This document shows, in pieces, positions 12,996-36,559 of a stretch of 37,720 nt of DNA (positions within the stretch are counted from its first letter, which is position 1; every line of letters begins with the position of its first letter). This DNA comes from a virus (taxonomy: Duplodnaviria > Caudoviricetes). Below the pieces are notes generated by a model that saw only the letters and a list, made by a program, of their open reading frames with translations, was not told the DNA's origin and made no database searches. The stretch lies in the IMG/VR virus record IMGVR_UViG_3300047282_000546, positions 1-37,720 of that record, one strand, 5' to 3'. The position numbers and the translations under genes were made by a program.

Positions 12996-13402
12996 TACTT
13001 CACCAACTTCTGCAGCGTGGAGGTGATCGGCAGTCGGTTCAGTGCCGGGCTGATCCAATCCCTAGCAGGCATCTGATTGCCTGCTTGCGTGCGATAACCA
13101 CGCAGCACATAGAGCGAATAGTCCACGTTCCAGGTGTAGCGATAGCTGAACGGTCCGCTTTTGCTGCGCACAATGCTCTGCCGCAACGCGCCGCTGTCCA
13201 CGATGTCGCGGGGGCTGCCGACACTCTCGCGGCCTTTGCCCTTGCGGTTGTAGCTACCGCGTCTGGTCTTGTAGGTGCTCGGCCAGGTGAACTGCTTAGT
13301 GCTGATCTCTTTGGTGAACTGCCCCTCCAGCAGCTGGCTGTAGCGCTCGAACGCTTTCTCTAGCCGCTCTTCAATCAGCCTGCTGTCAATCTCGATGCGC
13401 AT
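12995..13402 (-). CDS. Neck / tail-completion protein (HK97 gp10-like)
   Basis: PRDIVDSGALRQSI...YSLYVLRG...PARDWI motifs. Confidence 0.7.
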   Translation of the reverse strand: MRIEIDSRLIEERLEKAFERYSQLLEGQFTKEISTKQFTWPSTYKTRRGSYNRKGKGRESVGSPRDIVDSGALRQSIVRSKSGPFSYRYTWNVDYSLYVLRGYRTQAGNQMPARDWISPALNRLPITSTLQKLVK

Positions 13403-13405
13403 CGC

Positions 13406-13801
13406 TCACTCCTGCCGCACCGCATCCAGCACCACCACATGACCGACGTTGGCCTCTAGCAGCGCACCAATGCCGCCACGGCCATAGGCACTGCGAGCGG
13501 CCACCAGGGTGACGTTGTAGGTGCTGCCGTTGTCAATCTCCAGCGTGCCGGTCATCCCTTCCAGCACGTCGTCGTTGAGCAGCTGCGGATCGATGACGTA
13601 GCCCTCAAAGCGTGAGGTGCGCACATCCACGCCAGCGAAGTTCTGGCCGATGGTGGCGCCAATCTCTTTAACAAAAACCCGGTACGCCGCAGCCGTGGTG
13701 TTGGCTGTGACGTTACCGGTGTAGGGATCTGTGACGGTGCCCGCTGCGGGGAGCTGAAAGGTCAACTCCCCGTTGCTGTAGGCATCCAGCGGGCTAGCCA
13801 T
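13406..13801 (-). CDS. Putative head-closure protein
   Basis: 131 aa beta-rich ORF between the tail tube and neck genes; DPYTGN motif. Confidence 0.5.
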   Translation of the reverse strand: MASPLDAYSNGELTFQLPAAGTVTDPYTGNVTANTTAAAYRVFVKEIGATIGQNFAGVDVRTSRFEGYVIDPQLLNDDVLEGMTGTLEIDNGSTYNVTLVAARSAYGRGGIGALLEANVGHVVVLDAVRQE

Positions 13802-17422: not shown

Positions 17423-18945
17423 CAGCTACCCGGCAGGGCCTGGGGCGGGAGCATCACGCCGCCTTCCATCAGCAGGCGGTCGCGCTCCAGTCGGGACTGC
17501 AGTTCGGCTTGGTGATCGGCATCCATGCCAAGCACTTCGGCTTCCACGTCGAAGTCCACCGGCAGGATGCCGCCGCGTTGCAGCAGCTCCAGCGCGGTTT
17601 GCTTGCTGAGGTAGCCGCCATCGGCCAGGCTCTGGATCTGGGCCACCTGCTGCGGCTCCAGCTTGGATTCCAACGCCTGCGCTGCGATCTGCAGGTTGCC
17701 GGTCGGTTCTTCCCCGGTGTATTCACACCAGAGGAATTGGATCTGCTCAAACAGGTTGGCCTTCTGCATCCCTGCAAGGCTCAAGCCGCTCTGCACCTGC
17801 CCGGCCTGCAGGCGTGCCTGCGTGGCGGTGACGGCCTCCTTGCCAGACATGAAGGCGAGCGTCTCGTTGTTGATCAGCTCTTCGATGTGCAGCAGGTGCT
17901 GCTGCTGTTGCTGCAGGCTGCTGCCGCTCGGTTCCGCAAAGCTGAAGTCGCCATCAGTGGGCACATCGACGACGCTGTTCGGGCCGATCACCAACGGCGG
18001 CGGTGTTTGCCCATCCATCAGCAGCGCACCACGGCGCACGGGCACCGGCAGCGCACAGCGATGCAGCAGCTCATTGAGGTCAGAGCGGCTGCGGTAGTGC
18101 TGCAGGGTGAGCAGCGCCAGCTCGCGGAACGGCGGTAGGCCATGGCCCCAGCGTTGGAGTTGCGGGCTGTACCAAACCAGCGGCACATCCATCACGCTGG
18201 TGAAGCCTTCCTCCACCAGCAGTAGCTTCTGCGTGGCACCGAGCTGGCGGTTGATCTGCCACACCTGGAAGGCACCAGGGGTGAGCACGCGGAAAAAGGG
18301 CTCAACGGTGAAGCCGAAGTCCCCGGCCTCCACCTCACGCCACTCCAGCAGCGTGGCTTGAATTAGCCGCTCCTGGCCAGCGATGTATTCCGTGCGCCAG
18401 TTGAGGATGTTGCGGCGCTCCAGCAGCACCAAGTAGGGCTGCCGTCCGAGGGCGAGGCGATCCGCTTCCGAGGGCACCGCGACTTGCTGCGGCATCTCCA
18501 CCATCACCGCGCAGCCGCCATCGCGCATCGCCAGCGCATCGGCCATCGCAATAAAGGCGGTGAGGTTGTTGCCGAGCTGATCAATGTCATCAAGCTGCTG
18601 CTCAAGACTGGGCGGCAGATCGGTGACGGTGAACTGCGACAGGATGCCGGCCATCGCCTCAATGGCCTTGCGGAAGCTCGGCACATAGGTGGCGCGTGCC
18701 AAGCGCGAGCGATAGGCGCGGTCGGGCTCTTTGACTTCCTGGGGCAGGTAAGTGCTTTCTGCACCACGCAGCCCTAACCAGCAATCGGCCAGCAGGGTGA
18801 GATCGGGCTCAATGTCCCGCAACACCGGATGCTTCCAGGTCGGCAGGTTTGGCGCATCAAAGAGATCGCCGTCAATGGCAGGCCTGCCGTCCATCCATGT
18901 GATCTTCTTCCGTGCCCTGAAATTGCCGCTGATGGTTACAGCCAA
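17422..18945 (-). CDS. Portal protein (DUF4055-like)
   Basis: 507 aa; YLPQEVKE...AYRSRLARA, PPFRELALL..QHYRSRSD, TATQA motifs; follows terminase. Confidence 0.88.
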   Translation of the reverse strand: MAVTISGNFRARKKITWMDGRPAIDGDLFDAPNLPTWKHPVLRDIEPDLTLLADCWLGLRGAESTYLPQEVKEPDRAYRSRLARATYVPSFRKAIEAMAGILSQFTVTDLPPSLEQQLDDIDQLGNNLTAFIAMADALAMRDGGCAVMVEMPQQVAVPSEADRLALGRQPYLVLLERRNILNWRTEYIAGQERLIQATLLEWREVEAGDFGFTVEPFFRVLTPGAFQVWQINRQLGATQKLLLVEEGFTSVMDVPLVWYSPQLQRWGHGLPPFRELALLTLQHYRSRSDLNELLHRCALPVPVRRGALLMDGQTPPPLVIGPNSVVDVPTDGDFSFAEPSGSSLQQQQQHLLHIEELINNETLAFMSGKEAVTATQARLQAGQVQSGLSLAGMQKANLFEQIQFLWCEYTGEEPTGNLQIAAQALESKLEPQQVAQIQSLADGGYLSKQTALELLQRGGILPVDFDVEAEVLGMDADHQAELQSRLERDRLLMEGGVMLPPQALPGS

Positions 18946-19556
18946 CCGGCATCCATTTGATCAGCGCTGTCGTGCAGCTCAAAGCCTCCGAGTTCGTGAC
19001 CCATGCCGGCGGTTGCGCGGAGGTCGAGCTTGAGTTCATCGCTGCTGATGCCAAGCTTTTCGCACACCTGCGCCATGGTCTCGCCACGCTCCAGCAGGCG
19101 GCGGGCTTGCATGCCGCGCTGCCGCACTGCACCGGGGGCCTTCAGCCAGAAGTTGTGATCGCGGATGTAGTGCCGCCACTCGCCCAGGATGAAGGGCAGG
19201 GCGATGGTGGAGAACTTGAAGCCCTTGGCCGGGTCGTAGCGGCGCACGGCTTTGAGCAGACCGATCAGCCCGAGGCTGTAGAGATCTTCCACCTCAATGC
19301 AGCGGTACTTATGGAACTGCTGCTTGATGATTGTCTTGAGCAGCGGGATGTGCTGCTGCACCATGCGCTCCTCAGCGCGGCGTTTGCGCGGGCAGTGCTC
19401 TTGGTAGAGCAGGGTGCGGGGGCGGTCTGACTTGGGCTTGCGCGGCGGCAGCTTGCCGGTCGGTAGCGGTGCGGGCTGCCATGGCCCCTGCGGCAGATGC
19501 TCCAGGCCGAAGCTGAGCTGGCCATCAGGGATGTGGTGCTTGCTAGCCCTAGCCAT
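18936..19556 (-). CDS. SigF/SigB-type sigma factor, apparently lacking region 4
   Basis: EDLYSLGLIGLLKAVRRYDPAKGFKFSTIALPFILGEWRHYIRD is a group-3 region 2; only one short HTH follows. Confidence 0.85.
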   Translation of the reverse strand: MARASKHHIPDGQLSFGLEHLPQGPWQPAPLPTGKLPPRKPKSDRPRTLLYQEHCPRKRRAEERMVQQHIPLLKTIIKQQFHKYRCIEVEDLYSLGLIGLLKAVRRYDPAKGFKFSTIALPFILGEWRHYIRDHNFWLKAPGAVRQRGMQARRLLERGETMAQVCEKLGISSDELKLDLRATAGMGHELGGFELHDSADQMDAGWL

Positions 19557-19561
19557 GACCG

Positions 19562-20956
19562 TCACCAGATCGCTCCTTGGCCGTAGGAGACCGCTGCAGA
19601 GGTGGCGATAGCGGGACGGGAACGCAGCCAGGCGAGGCCTTGACTGAGGGCGTCCACTTGGTCGTCGTGCGCGGCGTTGGGGAAGGCGGCGGCCTCTTCG
19701 ATCAGGGCGGAGGCCCAGCTGCTGCGCTCCGGCAGGTAGACGTTGCCCGCTTCGATCATCGGGGAGATGGCGGCAGCGCGTGAGAACTTCCCGCCTTGAG
19801 GATTGACGGCGATCAGGCCAGGGATCTTGCTCTTAAGCATGGAGATCACGGCCGGGCCATTGGCCTTGTCTTCCACGACGGTGGCGACGGGCTTGTAGCG
19901 GTTAAAGGTGTTGACGATGGCGGGGATGGTTTCGGTGATGTCCAGGCGGTCGCGGATGCAGTCGAGCAGGTAGAAGGCCGCGCCTTTCTGGGCAATCACC
20001 AGGCCGACCACGTAGTCAGTGTTGGGGCCGTCTTTGAAGGTGAGATCCCAGCTCGTGATGATGCGGTCGAAGCTGGGTTGCTCGCGGTAGGTCTGCCACC
20101 AGGAGCGCTTGAACAGACCACCAGCTGGTGGGGAGGGGCGCTGTTGGAACAGGGCGTTGAAGCCGTATTCACCGAGAACGCGGCGGCGATCTTCCAAGGC
20201 CTCGCGGTCGTAACGCGCAGGGCAGAGCGGTTCACCGGGTTGGCGCTCAAGGGGGTCGCCTTCCTCAGCGATGGCCGGCAGGTTCACCACCGTCCAGTTG
20301 TCGGCGTCTTCGGAGTTGAGGATGCGCCCGGCCAAGTCGTCTTCATGCCAGCGCGTCATGGTGAGCACCACAGCGCCACCGGGTTCCAGACGGGTGTAGA
20401 GGTCGTCGCGGTACCAGTTCCAGACGCGCTCGCGGTAGGCCTCGGACTCGGCCTCCTCCCGTGATTTCACGGGGTCGTCGATGATGATCAGGTTGGCGCC
20501 AAGGCCGGTGATGCCGGCACCAACGCCAACGGCTCTGAGGCCACCGCCTTCGATGGTGTCCCACTGCTCCACGGCCTTGCGGTCTGAGGCGAGGGAGAGC
20601 AGGTCTTGCGCGATGCGGCGTGCTTTGCGGCTGAACGTGTTGGCGAGGGTTTGGGAATAGGCGGCGATCACCACGCGCTGCGCGGGGTCTTGCTGCAGGC
20701 GGAAGACGGGGTAGCGGATGGTGCCCATCTCGCTTTTGCCGTGGCGCGGGGGCACGGTGATCACGAGGCGCTTGAGGGTGCCTGCGGTGATGTCGTCAAG
20801 CTTTTCGCGAATGTGCTTGAGGTGCGGCCAGTTCCAGGTGAACGCCGGCGACTGCTCTGTGAGCCAGTCCGAGAAAGAGGTTGGAAGTGCGGCCTGCTTG
20901 CGCTCTTCCCCGATGGAGAGAGGGGAGTGAGCGGGTACAGCAAGGCAGCCGGTCAT
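19562..20956 (-). CDS. terL: Terminase large subunit
   Basis: Walker A PPRHGKS, Walker B LIIIDDP, MTRWHEDD, SWD, VEDKANG, FPNAAHDDQVDA. Confidence 0.96.
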   Translation of the reverse strand: MTGCLAVPAHSPLSIGEERKQAALPTSFSDWLTEQSPAFTWNWPHLKHIREKLDDITAGTLKRLVITVPPRHGKSEMGTIRYPVFRLQQDPAQRVVIAAYSQTLANTFSRKARRIAQDLLSLASDRKAVEQWDTIEGGGLRAVGVGAGITGLGANLIIIDDPVKSREEAESEAYRERVWNWYRDDLYTRLEPGGAVVLTMTRWHEDDLAGRILNSEDADNWTVVNLPAIAEEGDPLERQPGEPLCPARYDREALEDRRRVLGEYGFNALFQQRPSPPAGGLFKRSWWQTYREQPSFDRIITSWDLTFKDGPNTDYVVGLVIAQKGAAFYLLDCIRDRLDITETIPAIVNTFNRYKPVATVVEDKANGPAVISMLKSKIPGLIAVNPQGGKFSRAAAISPMIEAGNVYLPERSSWASALIEEAAAFPNAAHDDQVDALSQGLAWLRSRPAIATSAAVSYGQGAIW

Positions 20957-23432: not shown

Positions 23433-23452
23433 GGTCTGGCTAGCGATTGGGT

Positions 23453-23525
23453 GCCGGGATTCCGATGGTGCCGCATGCACCTGCCCTGATTCCCCTTGCG
23501 GGTGTTGTATTCGGGCCATCCCGGC
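23453..23525 (+). ncRNA. Candidate structured RNA (long imperfect hairpin)
   Basis: GCCGGGAT/ATCCCGGC, CCGA/TCGG and GCACCTGC/GCGGGTGT stems; G-U pairs favour the + strand. Confidence 0.45.
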
Positions 23526-23996
23526 GGTTCAAGAGTGCCACGGGATGGGTCCGCAGTGGACTAGCTGAAGCTACTTAGCGAAGCTTTGCGCTATGGCTGC
23601 TTAGCCCTAGCAAGCAATCTGCAGCAGATCCAGCTGTTGCATCGGAGCTGGCAAAGGCTGAGCGCCCCACTGCTGAGCCATGGCAACAGCTACGCCTTGA
23701 TAGGTGCGGCTGCGTTCTTTCCAGCGATCAGGCCCTGGCGGCATGCGATGCACTCGCTGCTCACGACCTTGAACGCAGTGGGTCGGGGTCAACTTGGGCA
23801 GATTCTTCAGCCAAAGGCAAGTGGCTTTGACTTCACCGTGGCCGTATTGCCACGGCTGGATGATCTGATCGGGCGGCCGGATCGCAGAGCTGATCACGCT
23901 GACCGGGTTCTCAATGCACCACCGCTCAATAGGTGCCGCCATGAGTAGGCGCACGAAGGCAAGCGCTTCTGCTTGTTCACGTTGCTTGCGATGGAA

Positions 23997-24048
23997 GGCC
24001 CGGCAGCGTTGAGGCCGGCACCGCGTGAGGACCGGCTACCGGGCACCC
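23997..24048 (-). ncRNA. Covarying structured element, copy A
   Basis: 37/52 gapless identity to 32609-32660 with four compensatory base-pair changes. Confidence 0.7.
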
Positions 24049-24156
24049 CATTGCACAGCCCGATGCCGAGGCAGAGCGGGAACCAGCCCATTGTAGGGAA
24101 GGTGACTACTTGCCCCAGCGGGCAATGCAAGCTTCAGCAAACGCAGCCATGCTTCC
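23997..24156 (-). other. 160-nt insertion in the methyltransferase, containing stops and a structured element
   Basis: Junctions ...CGG CAC|GGAAGC and CCGGGCC|TTC CAT; length not a multiple of 3. Confidence 0.8.
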
Positions 24157-24368
24157 GTGCCGCGATCCACTGACCGCTAGATGAGTGCAGGGCGGATGAG
24201 CCACCATCAGATCCCAGCCAAGGTCAAGGATGTGCTCAACGTGGGCCATCCAATGCGGCCCTGGCACTTCAGTGGGCAGCAGGTCGCAGCTCCATGCGTC
24301 ATGGCCGTGAGCGCGAAAGGCATCACGGACCCGGCCGCTGTACTCACAGGCGACTAAGACCCGCATGG

Positions 24369-31893: not shown

Positions 31894-32023
31894 AGATCTG
31901 CTTGCTGAGTGGTGGCGCGACAGCTACCCCCACGCCTCACCGATTAACAACCAAACCGCCAGCTTGATCGTGGCCTTTGCCGCTTGGGTGCTGGCCCGTA
32001 GGGCACGGGAGGCAGCGGAGTGA
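31868..32023 (+). CDS. Small hypothetical protein
   Basis: EWWRDSYPHASPIN...AFAAWV; GTGA-coupled to dcd. Confidence 0.65.
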   Translation: MTTTHQPLEDLLAEWWRDSYPHASPINNQTASLIVAFAAWVLARRAREAAE

Positions 32024-32601
32024 TCAAGGCCGACCACTGGATCCGCGAGCGTGCCGCCAGCGGCATGATCCAGCCCTTTGAGCCCACCCTGATCCGGCAG
32101 ATCGCTAGCCACAAGGTGCTCAGCTACGGCTGCAGCTCCTACGGCTACGACATCCGCCTCTCACCAGCGGATTTCCGCGTGTTCCAGCATGTGCCGGGCA
32201 CGATCATGGACCCCAAGGCGTTCAACCCCGACAACCTGCGCAACGTCGAGCTGAAGAGCGACGAGCGCGGTCGCTACTTCGTGCTGCCGGCCCATAGCTA
32301 CGGCTTGGGTGTGGCCTACGAAAAGCTCAGCGTGCCGGAGAACGTCACGGTGATCTGCCTGGGCAAGTCCACCTATGCCCGGATGGGGGTGATCGCGAAC
32401 ATGACCCCAGCGGAAGCGGGCTGGCGCGGGCACCTCACCTTGGAGTTCTCCAACTCCAGCGGTGCCGACTGCCGCATCTATGCCAACGAGGGCATCTGCC
32501 AGCTGCTGTTCTTTGAAGGTGAACCCTGTGAGGTCACCTATGAGAAACGCTCCGGCAAATACCAAGACCAGGAGCACACCGTGACCTTGGCCACGGTCTA
32601 A
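32020..32601 (+). CDS. dcd: dCTP deaminase
   Basis: SYGCSSYGYDIRL, GKSTYARMG, TPAEAGWRGHLTLE, YANEGICQ, KYQDQ. Confidence 0.96.
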   Translation: MIKADHWIRERAASGMIQPFEPTLIRQIASHKVLSYGCSSYGYDIRLSPADFRVFQHVPGTIMDPKAFNPDNLRNVELKSDERGRYFVLPAHSYGLGVAYEKLSVPENVTVICLGKSTYARMGVIANMTPAEAGWRGHLTLEFSNSSGADCRIYANEGICQLLFFEGEPCEVTYEKRSGKYQDQEHTVTLATV

Positions 32602-32608
32602 TTGAAGA

Positions 32609-32660
32609 GGGTGGCAGGTAGCCAGGGCTCACGCACCACTGGCCTCACCGCAGCCTGCCG
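32609..32660 (+). ncRNA. Covarying structured element, copy B
   Basis: Intergenic between dcd and the sigma gene; shares its fold with 23997-24048. Confidence 0.7.
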
Positions 32661-32727
32661 CTACGGACGCTTCGAGCCTTGTTAGAGGTCGAGCCAAAAG
32701 TTTAGCAACTTCTCCCTATTGCCGCTG

Positions 32728-33642
32728 ATGGCGCACCTTGCCAGTTCCGTTGACTGGATCCTCAAGCAATCCCACCGCTATCCGTTACTCACAGCAGATG
32801 AAGAGATCACCTTGGCCCGTCAGGTGCAGGACTGGCTGGCCCTCGGTGAGATCAAACGCCCGACCGTCAAACAGCGGGCGATCATCCGCAAAGGGCAACG
32901 TGCCCGCGAGCGCTTCTACCTCTCCAACATCCGCCTAGCGGTCAACTGCGCCGGGAAATACGCGGGCTGCTCCGGCACCTTGACCCTGGAAGACCTGATC
33001 CAAGAGGGTCTGCTTGGCTTGGATTCCGCCATCAACAAGTTCGATCCGACCCTCGGCTACAAGTTCTCCACCTACAGCTACTGGTGGATTCGCCAAGGGA
33101 TCATCCGCTCAATCAACAAATACAGCCGGTTGATCCACCTGCCGACAGCGGCGAATGATTCGATCCGCAAGGCGATGGATTACATGCGGGACTACAGCCG
33201 GATTCACGGCAAGCCACCGCCGGTGGCGGAGGTCGCTGAGGTGTGCGAGATCGGCACCAGAACCCTGCTGGCCTATCTCAATCACAACGCCAGCTTGATC
33301 AGCCTGGATTCACTGATGCCCAACAGCAGTGAACCCAGCACTTGGATGGATGTGGTGGCTGATCAAAGCGATAACGGCCCGCAAGTGAACGACAGCGAGG
33401 TGTTGGCCGATGTGGTCTTGCGCGAAGTGAACAAGCTGCCCGAGCAGCTGCAGCGCATCGTCAAGCAGCGCTACCTCAACGGGGAAAAGCGACCGACCAC
33501 CTACAAGGTCTTGGGGCAAGAGATCGGCACCTCCCGCGAGACCGTGCGCCATCTCCATGATGAAGCGCTGAATAGCCTGCGCCTCAAGCTGGGCGATCTA
33601 AGAGGGCAAGATTACATTCAAGCTCTGCAATCCGCCGCGTAG
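32728..33642 (+). CDS. RpoD/SigA-family (cyanobacterial group 2-like) sigma factor
   Basis: YPLLTADEEITLARQVQ, SNIRL, DLIQEG..GL..A..KFDPTLGYKFSTYSYWWIRQGI, region 4 SRETVR. Confidence 0.92.
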   Translation: MAHLASSVDWILKQSHRYPLLTADEEITLARQVQDWLALGEIKRPTVKQRAIIRKGQRARERFYLSNIRLAVNCAGKYAGCSGTLTLEDLIQEGLLGLDSAINKFDPTLGYKFSTYSYWWIRQGIIRSINKYSRLIHLPTAANDSIRKAMDYMRDYSRIHGKPPPVAEVAEVCEIGTRTLLAYLNHNASLISLDSLMPNSSEPSTWMDVVADQSDNGPQVNDSEVLADVVLREVNKLPEQLQRIVKQRYLNGEKRPTTYKVLGQEIGTSRETVRHLHDEALNSLRLKLGDLRGQDYIQALQSAA

Positions 33643-35960: not shown

Positions 35961-36152
35961 TTAAGCCGATTCTTCAGGGGCTTGTTCGGAACTTGCCTTC
36001 TTCTTGCCGCTGGTTTTGGCCACCACCGCCTTGCGCTCGTCAGCGCTCAGCGTCCAGCCATTCCCCAGGGCTTCCATCAGCTCCAGCCGGGTCGAGGCCA
36101 CATAGGTGGCCCCAGAGTCCGGGTGGGTGAGGGTGACCGGGTAGGCCGACAT
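35961..36152 (-). CDS. Small capsid-operon protein
   Basis: 63 aa; YPVTLTHP...NGW and Lys-rich tail; coupled to the upstream gene. Confidence 0.65.
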   Translation of the reverse strand: MSAYPVTLTHPDSGATYVASTRLELMEALGNGWTLSADERKAVVAKTSGKKKASSEQAPEESA

Positions 36153-36559
36153 CACTTGGCGATGTAGACCGTGGCGGTAGCAGCACCGGGGCTGCCGGTC
36201 TTGGTGATCACACCCTTGACCACAGCGGCACGGCCGCCGAGGCGTTGGGTCACTTCAGGACCAGAGAAGGGCACTTCAATGGTCTTGGCGGTGGCGGGCA
36301 GCACGATGGACTCAATGGTCACAAAGCTGCCACCAGCAGCGGTAGCGGCTTGCAGGCTCACGGTCCACTCGGCAGTGCCGGCGGTGTAAGAGCTGTAGCC
36401 ACCGGAGGCGATCACCACCTTGGCGGTGTTGAGGCTGGAGGCATCAAAGGTCACCTCAGAACCGGTGACGGTGGCGGTAGCGCCGCTGGCCACAGCCAGC
36501 TCAAGAGCGGAATCGCGCAGATAGCTGCGGCGGTCGCTCATTCCAGTTGCGACGGGCAT
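36152..36559 (-). CDS. Head decoration / cement protein
   Basis: 135 aa Ala/Thr-rich beta protein directly after the capsid gene. Confidence 0.65.
   Translation of the reverse strand: MPVATGMSDRRSYLRDSALELAVASGATATVTGSEVTFDASSLNTAKVVIASGGYSSYTAGTAEWTVSLQAATAAGGSFVTIESIVLPATAKTIEVPFSGPEVTQRLGGRAAVVKGVITKTGSPGAATATVYIAK

Follow-up and report, generated by a model that had tools for sequence, protein, structure and literature searches.

The window, that is, the whole stretch of DNA that was analyzed and to which all coordinates refer unless a locus is named, is an entire 37,720-bp virus record. Its genes include those for head and tail proteins, for a serine integrase, and for two sigma factors, and its lysin is closest to the lysins of the Synechococcus phages S-CBS3 and S-LBS1; we infer that the genome is that of a temperate siphovirus of picocyanobacteria. 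The two sigma-factor-like genes in this 38-kb phage are located at 18936–19565 (minus strand) and 32728–33642 (plus strand), and one of them sits between the terminase and portal genes. The cyanophage-like genome also has a match to sRNA-Xcc1 (RF02221) at 23445–23525 (minus strand; 56.4 bits, above the gathering score); this RNA is matched at locus L246 (546–626) as well, and a similar stretch is found in phage S-SRP02. The element described in this work is located between the dCTP deaminase gene and the second sigma gene:

32020–32601, plus strand: dCTP deaminase gene, convergent with the 3′ end of the predicted RNA
32605–32695, minus strand: predicted complete small RNA (native copy B, extended), ∼90 nt; both ends inferred from family alignments
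32699–32707, minus strand: extended −10 box TG-C-TAAACT, the predicted promoter (from the statistics of TAnnnT in the family)
32728–33642, plus strand: sigma-70 family gene, divergent from the predicted RNA promoter

A sequence-only reading of the window had described a 52-nt element in two copies, A (24048–23997, minus strand) and B (32609–32660, plus strand), and proposed that it is a structured RNA. The gapless alignment of A and B with 37/52 identities is borne out (the runner-up 52-mer in the window has 28 matches to A and 29 to B), and the sequences of A and B confirm the four compensatory pairs (positions 6–50, 8–48, 16–32, and 19–28) and the U11/G45 pair that is common to both copies. 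Neither 52-mer folds better than its own shuffles on either strand (z −0.09 to −0.92); the A/B pair alone is therefore no proof of structure, and the support for structure is comparative, not thermodynamic. From the overall reading, the selected structure, the lack of an Rfam family, and the −10-like box as a clue survive the analysis; the strand, the unpaired linker, the conserved loop, the role as leader of the sigma gene, and the number of copies do not.

The element runs ∼35 nt beyond B, to about 32695, so the original 52 nt are about half of it. Its parts are:

32669–32694, minus strand: P0, a 5′ hairpin of variable sequence (fold; z < −1.5 in 65/78 members)
32661–32666, minus strand: S1a, the 5′ strand of pseudoknot stem S1, absent from A (S1 paired 6/6 in 70/70 loci; covariation)
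32654–32660, minus strand: loop 1 (C at 32660) and S2a (32659–32654), with G+1 in 82/82 members
32645–32653, minus strand: S1b (32653–32648) and the U-R-A junction (32647–32645), formerly the ‘linker’ (family alignment; UAA variants exist)
32619–32644, minus strand: P2, a hairpin in loop 3 (32644–32620), and the single A before S2b (32619) (covariation, loop variants)
32605–32618, minus strand: S2b (32618–32613) and the 3′ tail (S2 paired 6/6 in 110 of 119 listed matches)

The order on the minus strand, 5′ to 3′, is −10 box, P0, a short linker, S1a, loop 1, S2a, S1b, U-R-A, P2, A, S2b, and tail. S1a/S1b crosses S2a/S2b, so the predicted fold is an H-type pseudoknot with a hairpin in loop 3; the segment that had been taken as an unpaired linker pairs with a segment outside of the 52 nt and forms stem S1. 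In all 82 members of the alignment used for statistics (vide infra), S2a abuts S1b directly and one A links P2 to S2b; this single A directly follows P2 in all 110 true loci. Loop 1 has 0–2 nt (a single C in 44/82), and the consensus of the tail is A(C/A)CC-N-W-UU. The CUCACGC-type loop that had been considered conserved is not a constant of the family, that is, the common hexamer occurs in the P2 loop of 67/82 members and eight other loops are found. The junction bases are fixed and the peripheral helices are variable. The calculated energies of S1 + P2 and S2 + P2 are nearly equal (−20.4 vs −21.0 kcal/mol), so that a switch between two states is as good a fit as a knot with both stems formed at once. 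One locus upstream of a sigma gene (L107) is a diverged member with an altered P2 loop, apparently without P0.

Three patterns, each of which leaves out part of the structure, were used to collect the family. A pattern for the central hairpin identified 8 viral and 69 metagenome loci; S2, which is absent from the metagenome pattern, is paired 6/6 in 8/8 viral and 19/69 metagenome loci, and the other 50 metagenome loci (S2 at ≤4/6) are chance matches. In these central-hairpin loci the element was seen to continue past B. A pattern for the newly found part alone identified at least 119 viral loci; among the 119 matches listed, 110 carry both S2 paired 6/6 and the P2 base, S2b being absent from the pattern. 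A third pattern, with S1a left out, identified 70 loci, and S1 pairs 6/6 in every one of them. Over the 2.34 Mb of fetched DNA, a structure descriptor matched 171 times, compared with 0 times in block-shuffled sequence. The motif is carried by 270 of the 614 fetched loci, with 92 distinct cores; many of these loci are redundant.

For statistics we used 82 of 107 distinct extended sequences, dropping two with short flanks and 23 that are >93% identical to others; since pairing was a criterion for inclusion, the percent-paired figure of this set is circular, and the independent tests of pairing are the counts for S2 (8/8, 19/69, and 110/119) and S1 (70/70) given above. In the 82-member set, double-sided changes occur at 15/21 pairs, including 3/6 in S1, 4/6 in S2, and 5/6 of the outer pairs of P2; covariation in a larger alignment, to which the sequence-only reading had tied its RNA interpretation, is found, and the covarying stems bear out the claim that structure is under selection. 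Single pairs in S1 and S2 changed at least 6–7 separate times on a tree, a rough count because the tree is from the same alignment; one S1 pair switches between C-G and U-G at least 14 times on the tree. A structured RNA very probably exists. It would represent an uncatalogued RNA family of picocyanobacterial phages, with a putative function; the element itself is real, and it is larger and has better support than in the first description.

The leftward −10-like box at 32699–32707 had been noted in the sequence-only reading as a reason to doubt its own choice of strand; the box is confirmed and is the key clue. A TAnnnT hexamer is found 30–38 nt upstream of S1a in 78/82 members (3/82 in a control window), and neither the −10 box nor P0 was among the features used in the searches. 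In S1 of 46 distinct members found without S1a in the pattern, there are 26 G-U and 0 A·C pairs; for 20 columns in the 82-member set the counts are 116 G-U vs 15 A·C, partly due to selection. Two inner P2 columns favor the opposite strand, with A·C exceeding G-U on the promoter strand (12 vs 5 and 2 vs 0). Judged from these sequence statistics, above all S1 and the −10 box, the RNA is most likely encoded by the minus strand, the reverse of the strand first written. A scan for −35/−10 pairs gave 0 sites at B, that is, the box has no canonical −35 partner, and a scan for intrinsic terminators at B also gave 0. In 25/78 members, the TA of this box is part of a stop codon, mostly that of a same-strand upstream HNH gene, and in 53/78 the box is free of such overlap; the overlap makes co-transcription and a cis role possible in those 25. 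Two RNA-labelled runs do not contain this phage and are thus neutral as to its expression.

The carriers are many viruses of lake and estuary cyanobacteria; they include siphovirus-like records and an isolated podovirus, S-SRP02, that has a full copy and infects Synechococcus sp. SR-C1. In S-SRP02, a hypothetical ORF of 47 aa (S-SRP02_p033; L499 19752–19895) overlaps the RNA on the opposite strand; this ORF is probably not a protein gene but a mis-annotation, and no non-coding RNA is mentioned in the sections consulted of the S-SRP02 genome paper (PMC8790148). The motif is absent from S-CBS3, S-LBS1, and S-CBS2, and S-CBS3 has an empty HNH junction. A first search of INPHARED gave one real and one chance match, and a second gave only chance matches. 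A gene of the host chromosome is rejected within the reach of two strict patterns: in genome contigs, one gave 0 matches and the other gave 1 true match in 14, on a 1.5-kb contig; plasmids gave no match to the motif.

A covariance model that uses only the S2 and P2 pairs gives exactly one match in each of 23/23 motif-bearing records, and its match in G001, a sister genome of the window, is a single one; the element is therefore a single-copy element, not the two-copy element first described. The flanks of the 82 members fall into 27 clusters on the 3′ side and 28 on the 5′ side (the largest with 41/82), and with at least 27 such contexts the element is no leader of the sigma gene. In 64/82, the closest frame on the 3′ side is antisense to the RNA (crude ORF calls). 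The single copy, own predicted promoter, free position, and patchy presence point to an accessory, trans-acting gene. In 18 of 20 inspected loci, mostly in a lysin-linked context, the element comes after the end of an HNH gene, where convergent genes meet, and at the dCTP deaminase–sigma junction all 19 close relatives whose sequence is long enough have it (19/19), with sigma identities as low as 54% (by eye). Both arrangements fit an element that acts in cis, either as a nuclease-blocking 3′ end of a late mRNA, the commonest position being directly behind a same-strand HNH gene, or as an antisense promoter by which convergent operons are damped or insulated, the pseudoknot serving only to stabilize the transcript. 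Such a role is unlikely, however: at B and in its relatives both neighbors run antisense, leaving no upstream mRNA in need of protection; the element occurs once per genome in unrelated places; and antisense damping needs no invariant junction bases.

For the trans-acting gene that we favor, we looked for a partner by comparing gene content in 21 genomes (S-SRP02 and 20 of 22 metagenomic records; these were mostly complete or almost complete, and one covered 20 of 32 kb). The lysin family is the only one that is common to all 21. A dedicated phage partner protein is rejected: the candidate, a 96-aa protein of no assigned family, is present in 19/21 genomes, yet it is also present in S-CBS3, which lacks the RNA. 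Linkage to tRNA genes is not observed, with a tRNA within 700 nt of 1/82 members. In one motif-bearing phage (G013, near 13369–13445; one of L580/L581), ARAGORN identifies a tRNA with the anticodon TTA, similar to that of a stop suppressor.

Copy A is located in a DNA methyltransferase gene:

23607–23996, minus strand: 3′ part of the methyltransferase (profile 96–221), from the same gene as the 5′ part
23998–24048, plus strand: copy A, the motif cut down to the part from S2a (G+1) through the tail; promoter, P0, and S1a are missing
23998–24156, no strand assigned: insertion of 159 bp with the same sequence as part of another phage's record (L005/G004); one C is shared at the junction
24057–24095, minus strand: unit 2, an unrelated second hairpin motif (24083–24057) inside the insertion, with a −10-like TACAAT at 24095–24090
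24157–24366, minus strand: 5′ part of the methyltransferase (phrog_757, profile 15–96), interrupted by the insertion

Both halves of the methyltransferase meet at the same position of the profile, and G001, a complete phage that is nearly identical to the window, lacks an insert at the A site. In the donor record, to which the insert is 100% identical, the motif runs on into S1a, P0, and a −10 box; the insert starts exactly at G+1 of S2a (on the RNA strand), so A is without these parts. Thus, A is a truncated passenger, not a native copy; its last base as first delimited (23997) is outside of the stretch shared with the donor phage. An assembly artefact is rejected, because a 1171-nt contig (X3) from an independent study spans both junctions with 0 differences; the donor stretch is also present in further contigs, from runs X1 and X4. 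A programmed intron or bypass is also rejected: 90 of 95 methyltransferase loci with a match are uninterrupted (a count that does not reveal the insertion in G001 described next), and the insert is identical to the ordinary locus of another phage.

G001 has a separate, 236-bp insertion near the start of the same gene (G001 36034–36269, the same as L571 16034–16269; at 24343–24345 in the window), with a 3-base repeat at its ends. The inserted sequence opens at the P2 loop of a variant of the motif, and unit 2 is part of it as well; this form is also found in run X8. That the same small-RNA-rich locus was captured twice suggests a bias in its favor. In the window, the insertion joins the N-terminal 70 residues of the methyltransferase to the final 16 codons of a donor ORF, in the same reading frame (24106–24366, minus strand); it also supplies a −10-like box directed toward the downstream genes. 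Other methyltransferase homologues are broken in other ways: L300 and L416 have a frameshifting internal deletion, and L072 has a duplicated N-terminal piece.

We think it probable that A arose by end-joining of DNA fragments from a co-infecting phage, which is the simpler account; capture of a cDNA from a processed read-through RNA is the less probable route, although a real candidate. The junction at G+1 is one event, and the junction of the second insertion is elsewhere; truncated copies as a regular retro-product are rejected, with 0/70 other copies truncated. The bond at which A starts is also the one that would be cut by a small self-cleaving ribozyme acting in loop 1, 5′ of G+1. The compact pseudoknot (∼55 nt), its invariant junction bases, and a variable N−1 before a fixed G+1 are consistent with this activity, but the unpaired bases that are invariant are few (U-R-A and A), Rfam has no matching ribozyme, and neither the start of the G001 insertion (in the P2 loop) nor the 70 untruncated copies would be expected from cleavage there. 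HDV-like ribozymes have a nested double pseudoknot, P3/L3, P1.1, and a catalytic C in J4/2; the strand order of the element is HDV-like but without P3/L3 and the J4/2 cytosine; S2a runs straight into S1b and one A connects P2 and S2b (82/82). We regard a ribozyme as decidedly doubtful.

Because both methyltransferase insertions begin inside the motif, and because the element has many insertion sites and is often beside HNH genes, we also considered that it is not an RNA but a single-stranded DNA structure or mobile-element end that is recognized by a nuclease or recombinase (e.g., the neighboring HNH protein). This explanation is very improbable: the element is single copy, the −10 box is conserved at a fixed distance, the C-G/U-G pair switches at least 14 times, and the HNH family is absent from 4/21 motif-bearing genomes, yet it is present in the motif-less S-CBS3.

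Unit 2, the other hairpin in the insertion, is 27 nt long and is found in at least 119 viral loci (L366–L484); in 52 of 91 distinct copies, a TAnnnT box is located 5–8 nt upstream. It heads varied arrays of further hairpins, sometimes with tRNA or tRNA-like sequences, and is convergent to the pseudoknot RNA in 15/107 members; no match to Rfam was found for unit 2, in the window or in the G001 insert. A third motif of ∼45 nt, with a closing stem, two small internal loops, and a capped hairpin, is usually directly behind unit 2 (L571 16034–16269, that is, G001 36034–36269, and L388, L389, L394, L415, and L600); the sequence of one loop in this motif is complementary to that of the common P2 loop in the pseudoknot RNA.

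Rfam 15 has no family at gathering score for the element in the whole window, in the 200 nt around B (best E 1.4), or in 13 other loci, in which the only match is to a separate sRNA-Xcc1; the cmscan that the sequence-only reading had proposed thus leaves both A and B without a family. The G001 insertion likewise gave no credible match. The motif is not described in the literature searched, in so far as the consulted parts extend; an unnamed listing is possible among the thousands of unnamed IMG/VR candidates in PMC10690425 or in the supplements of PMC5737381, and the consulted part of the supplement of PMC10085705 has no match. The element differs in a defining feature from each of C4, CI, sRNA-Xcc1, and STAXI, so we assign it to none of them, although it works most like them.

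C4 and CI are processed by RNase P. With C4 (RF01695) and P4 CI the element shares a small size, phage origin, its own (here predicted) promoter, and an RCC-like tail after the closing stem (for CI, as given in part of PMC4825925); an upstream site complementary to an exposed bulge is also found (here S1a:S1b, 70/70). In the sequence of its end, G+1 in 82/82, A at tail position +1 (A73) in 77/82, and RCC in 65/82 are hints of a possible maturation by RNase P. The element has no downstream complementary site or regulated operon, however, is a pseudoknot rather than a cloverleaf or double stem-loop, and lies antisense or convergent to its neighbors.

These likenesses raise the possibility of a processed antisense regulator similar to P4 CI and P1 C4, in which S1a would mask the 9-nt S1b-URA segment until cleavage at G+1 (e.g., by RNase P) frees a 52–55-nt hairpin, the bulge and loop of which would pair with phage or host mRNAs. 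The upstream segment would then parallel seqA (PMC4825925, in part), the G+1, A73, and RCC features and the start of the A insertion exactly at G+1 would follow, and complements of the S1b segment are in mild excess genome-wide (46 vs 37 expected, and 24 for a swapped variant). Several observations make such a regulator improbable: a downstream seqC-like site is found within 500 nt in only 3/70 loci for the bulge and 2/70 for the loop, 4/21 genomes have no complement at all, the P2 loop varies, and the 3′ side has no regulated operon, the nearest frame being antisense in 64/82.

sRNA-Xcc1 is likewise an sRNA of mobile elements, is present in the same window, and has a closing stem followed by the same ACCC-type tail; its three-way junction and conserved AUACAA loop are not found in the element, its model misses both A and B, and its core is within 600 nt of 0/107 members. 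STAXI (RF01728) is a pseudoknot motif of mobile DNA with no known function, according to the part consulted of PMC2864571. It occurs as tandem repeats in enterobacteria; in contrast, the element is single with its own −10 box, and the STAXI model gives no match. The topology of a hairpin in loop 3 is that of the preQ1-II riboswitch, and protein-binding pseudoknots are known from the type III antitoxin RNAs (ToxI, CptI). Unlike preQ1-II, the element has no downstream gene or ribosome-binding site in S2b (the 3′ frame is antisense in 64/82, in at least 27 contexts); unlike type III antitoxins, it has no tandem repeats (one match per genome, 23/23) and no linked toxin gene. Neither gives a match in Rfam.

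We therefore return to the trans-acting RNA. In this proposal, B is the 3′ part of a ∼90-nt element with its own predicted −10 promoter and a predicted pseudoknot that a host protein would bind by its shape; we hold it with about even confidence. Fixed junction bases together with free peripheral helices suggest recognition of shape, and a host protein is the likeliest partner because no phage partner is common to all carriers, an argument by exclusion. Host RNA polymerase would start a few bases past the −10 box, and P0 would cap the 5′ end. S1 and S2 would stack into a single helix of 12 bp, P2 being bulged out of loop 3, and triples from the loop-1 C and the loop-3 adenosines may hold the stacked helix, by analogy with other pseudoknot structures. 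After trimming of the 3′ end to the A(C/A)CC tail, the product would be compact and stable, with an S2 end that resembles the acceptor end of a tRNA (G+1, A73, CC). Two points count against the proposal here: the full ACCA is encoded in only 10/82, and cyanobacterial RNase P RNA depends little on a 3′ CCA. During infection or lysogeny the RNA could serve as a decoy or ligand for a host protein that handles tRNA or participates in defense, and the accessory gene would move between phages with its own promoter by exchange at the DNA level.

A mimic of tRNA would be one form of this shape-recognized role, to which, from sequence features, we assign about a third of the weight of the role as a whole. 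The closest parallel is the TYMV-type tRNA-like structure, also an H-type pseudoknot with S2 ending in a discriminator base and CC; as reported in part of PMC12710915, H-type pseudoknots with a 3′ RCC are cleaved within loop 1 by RNase P in vitro, and the enzyme also cuts the tRNA-like end of TYMV. The element differs from these in being encoded by dsDNA phages, in the hairpin in loop 3, in the scarcity of ACCA (10/82), and in having no conserved anticodon-like loop, its P0 and P2 loops being variable. Taken to its full extent, the idea is that a stand-alone gene of dsDNA cyanophages encodes a pseudoknotted mimic of the tRNA acceptor, the fold of plant RNA virus 3′ ends, as a decoy against tRNA-targeting defense or stress sensing by the host, and that read-through RNA cut by RNase P can be copied to DNA and captured by co-infecting phages. 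Capture of such a cut transcript would explain why the A insertion starts exactly at G+1; we consider this full version a long shot.

Two independent motif-bearing insertions in one methyltransferase gene provide a clean case that bears on the capture of RNA-derived DNA from co-infecting phages. We know of few phage small RNAs with known function, and Rfam 15 and the literature searched gave none with this fold. Because the cultured pair of S-SRP02 and Synechococcus sp. SR-C1 carries the element, its expression, fold, and partner are directly testable. A small, single-copy, strongly covarying RNA that is found in unrelated types of phages with a common host range has the distribution expected of a host-takeover or counter-defense factor.
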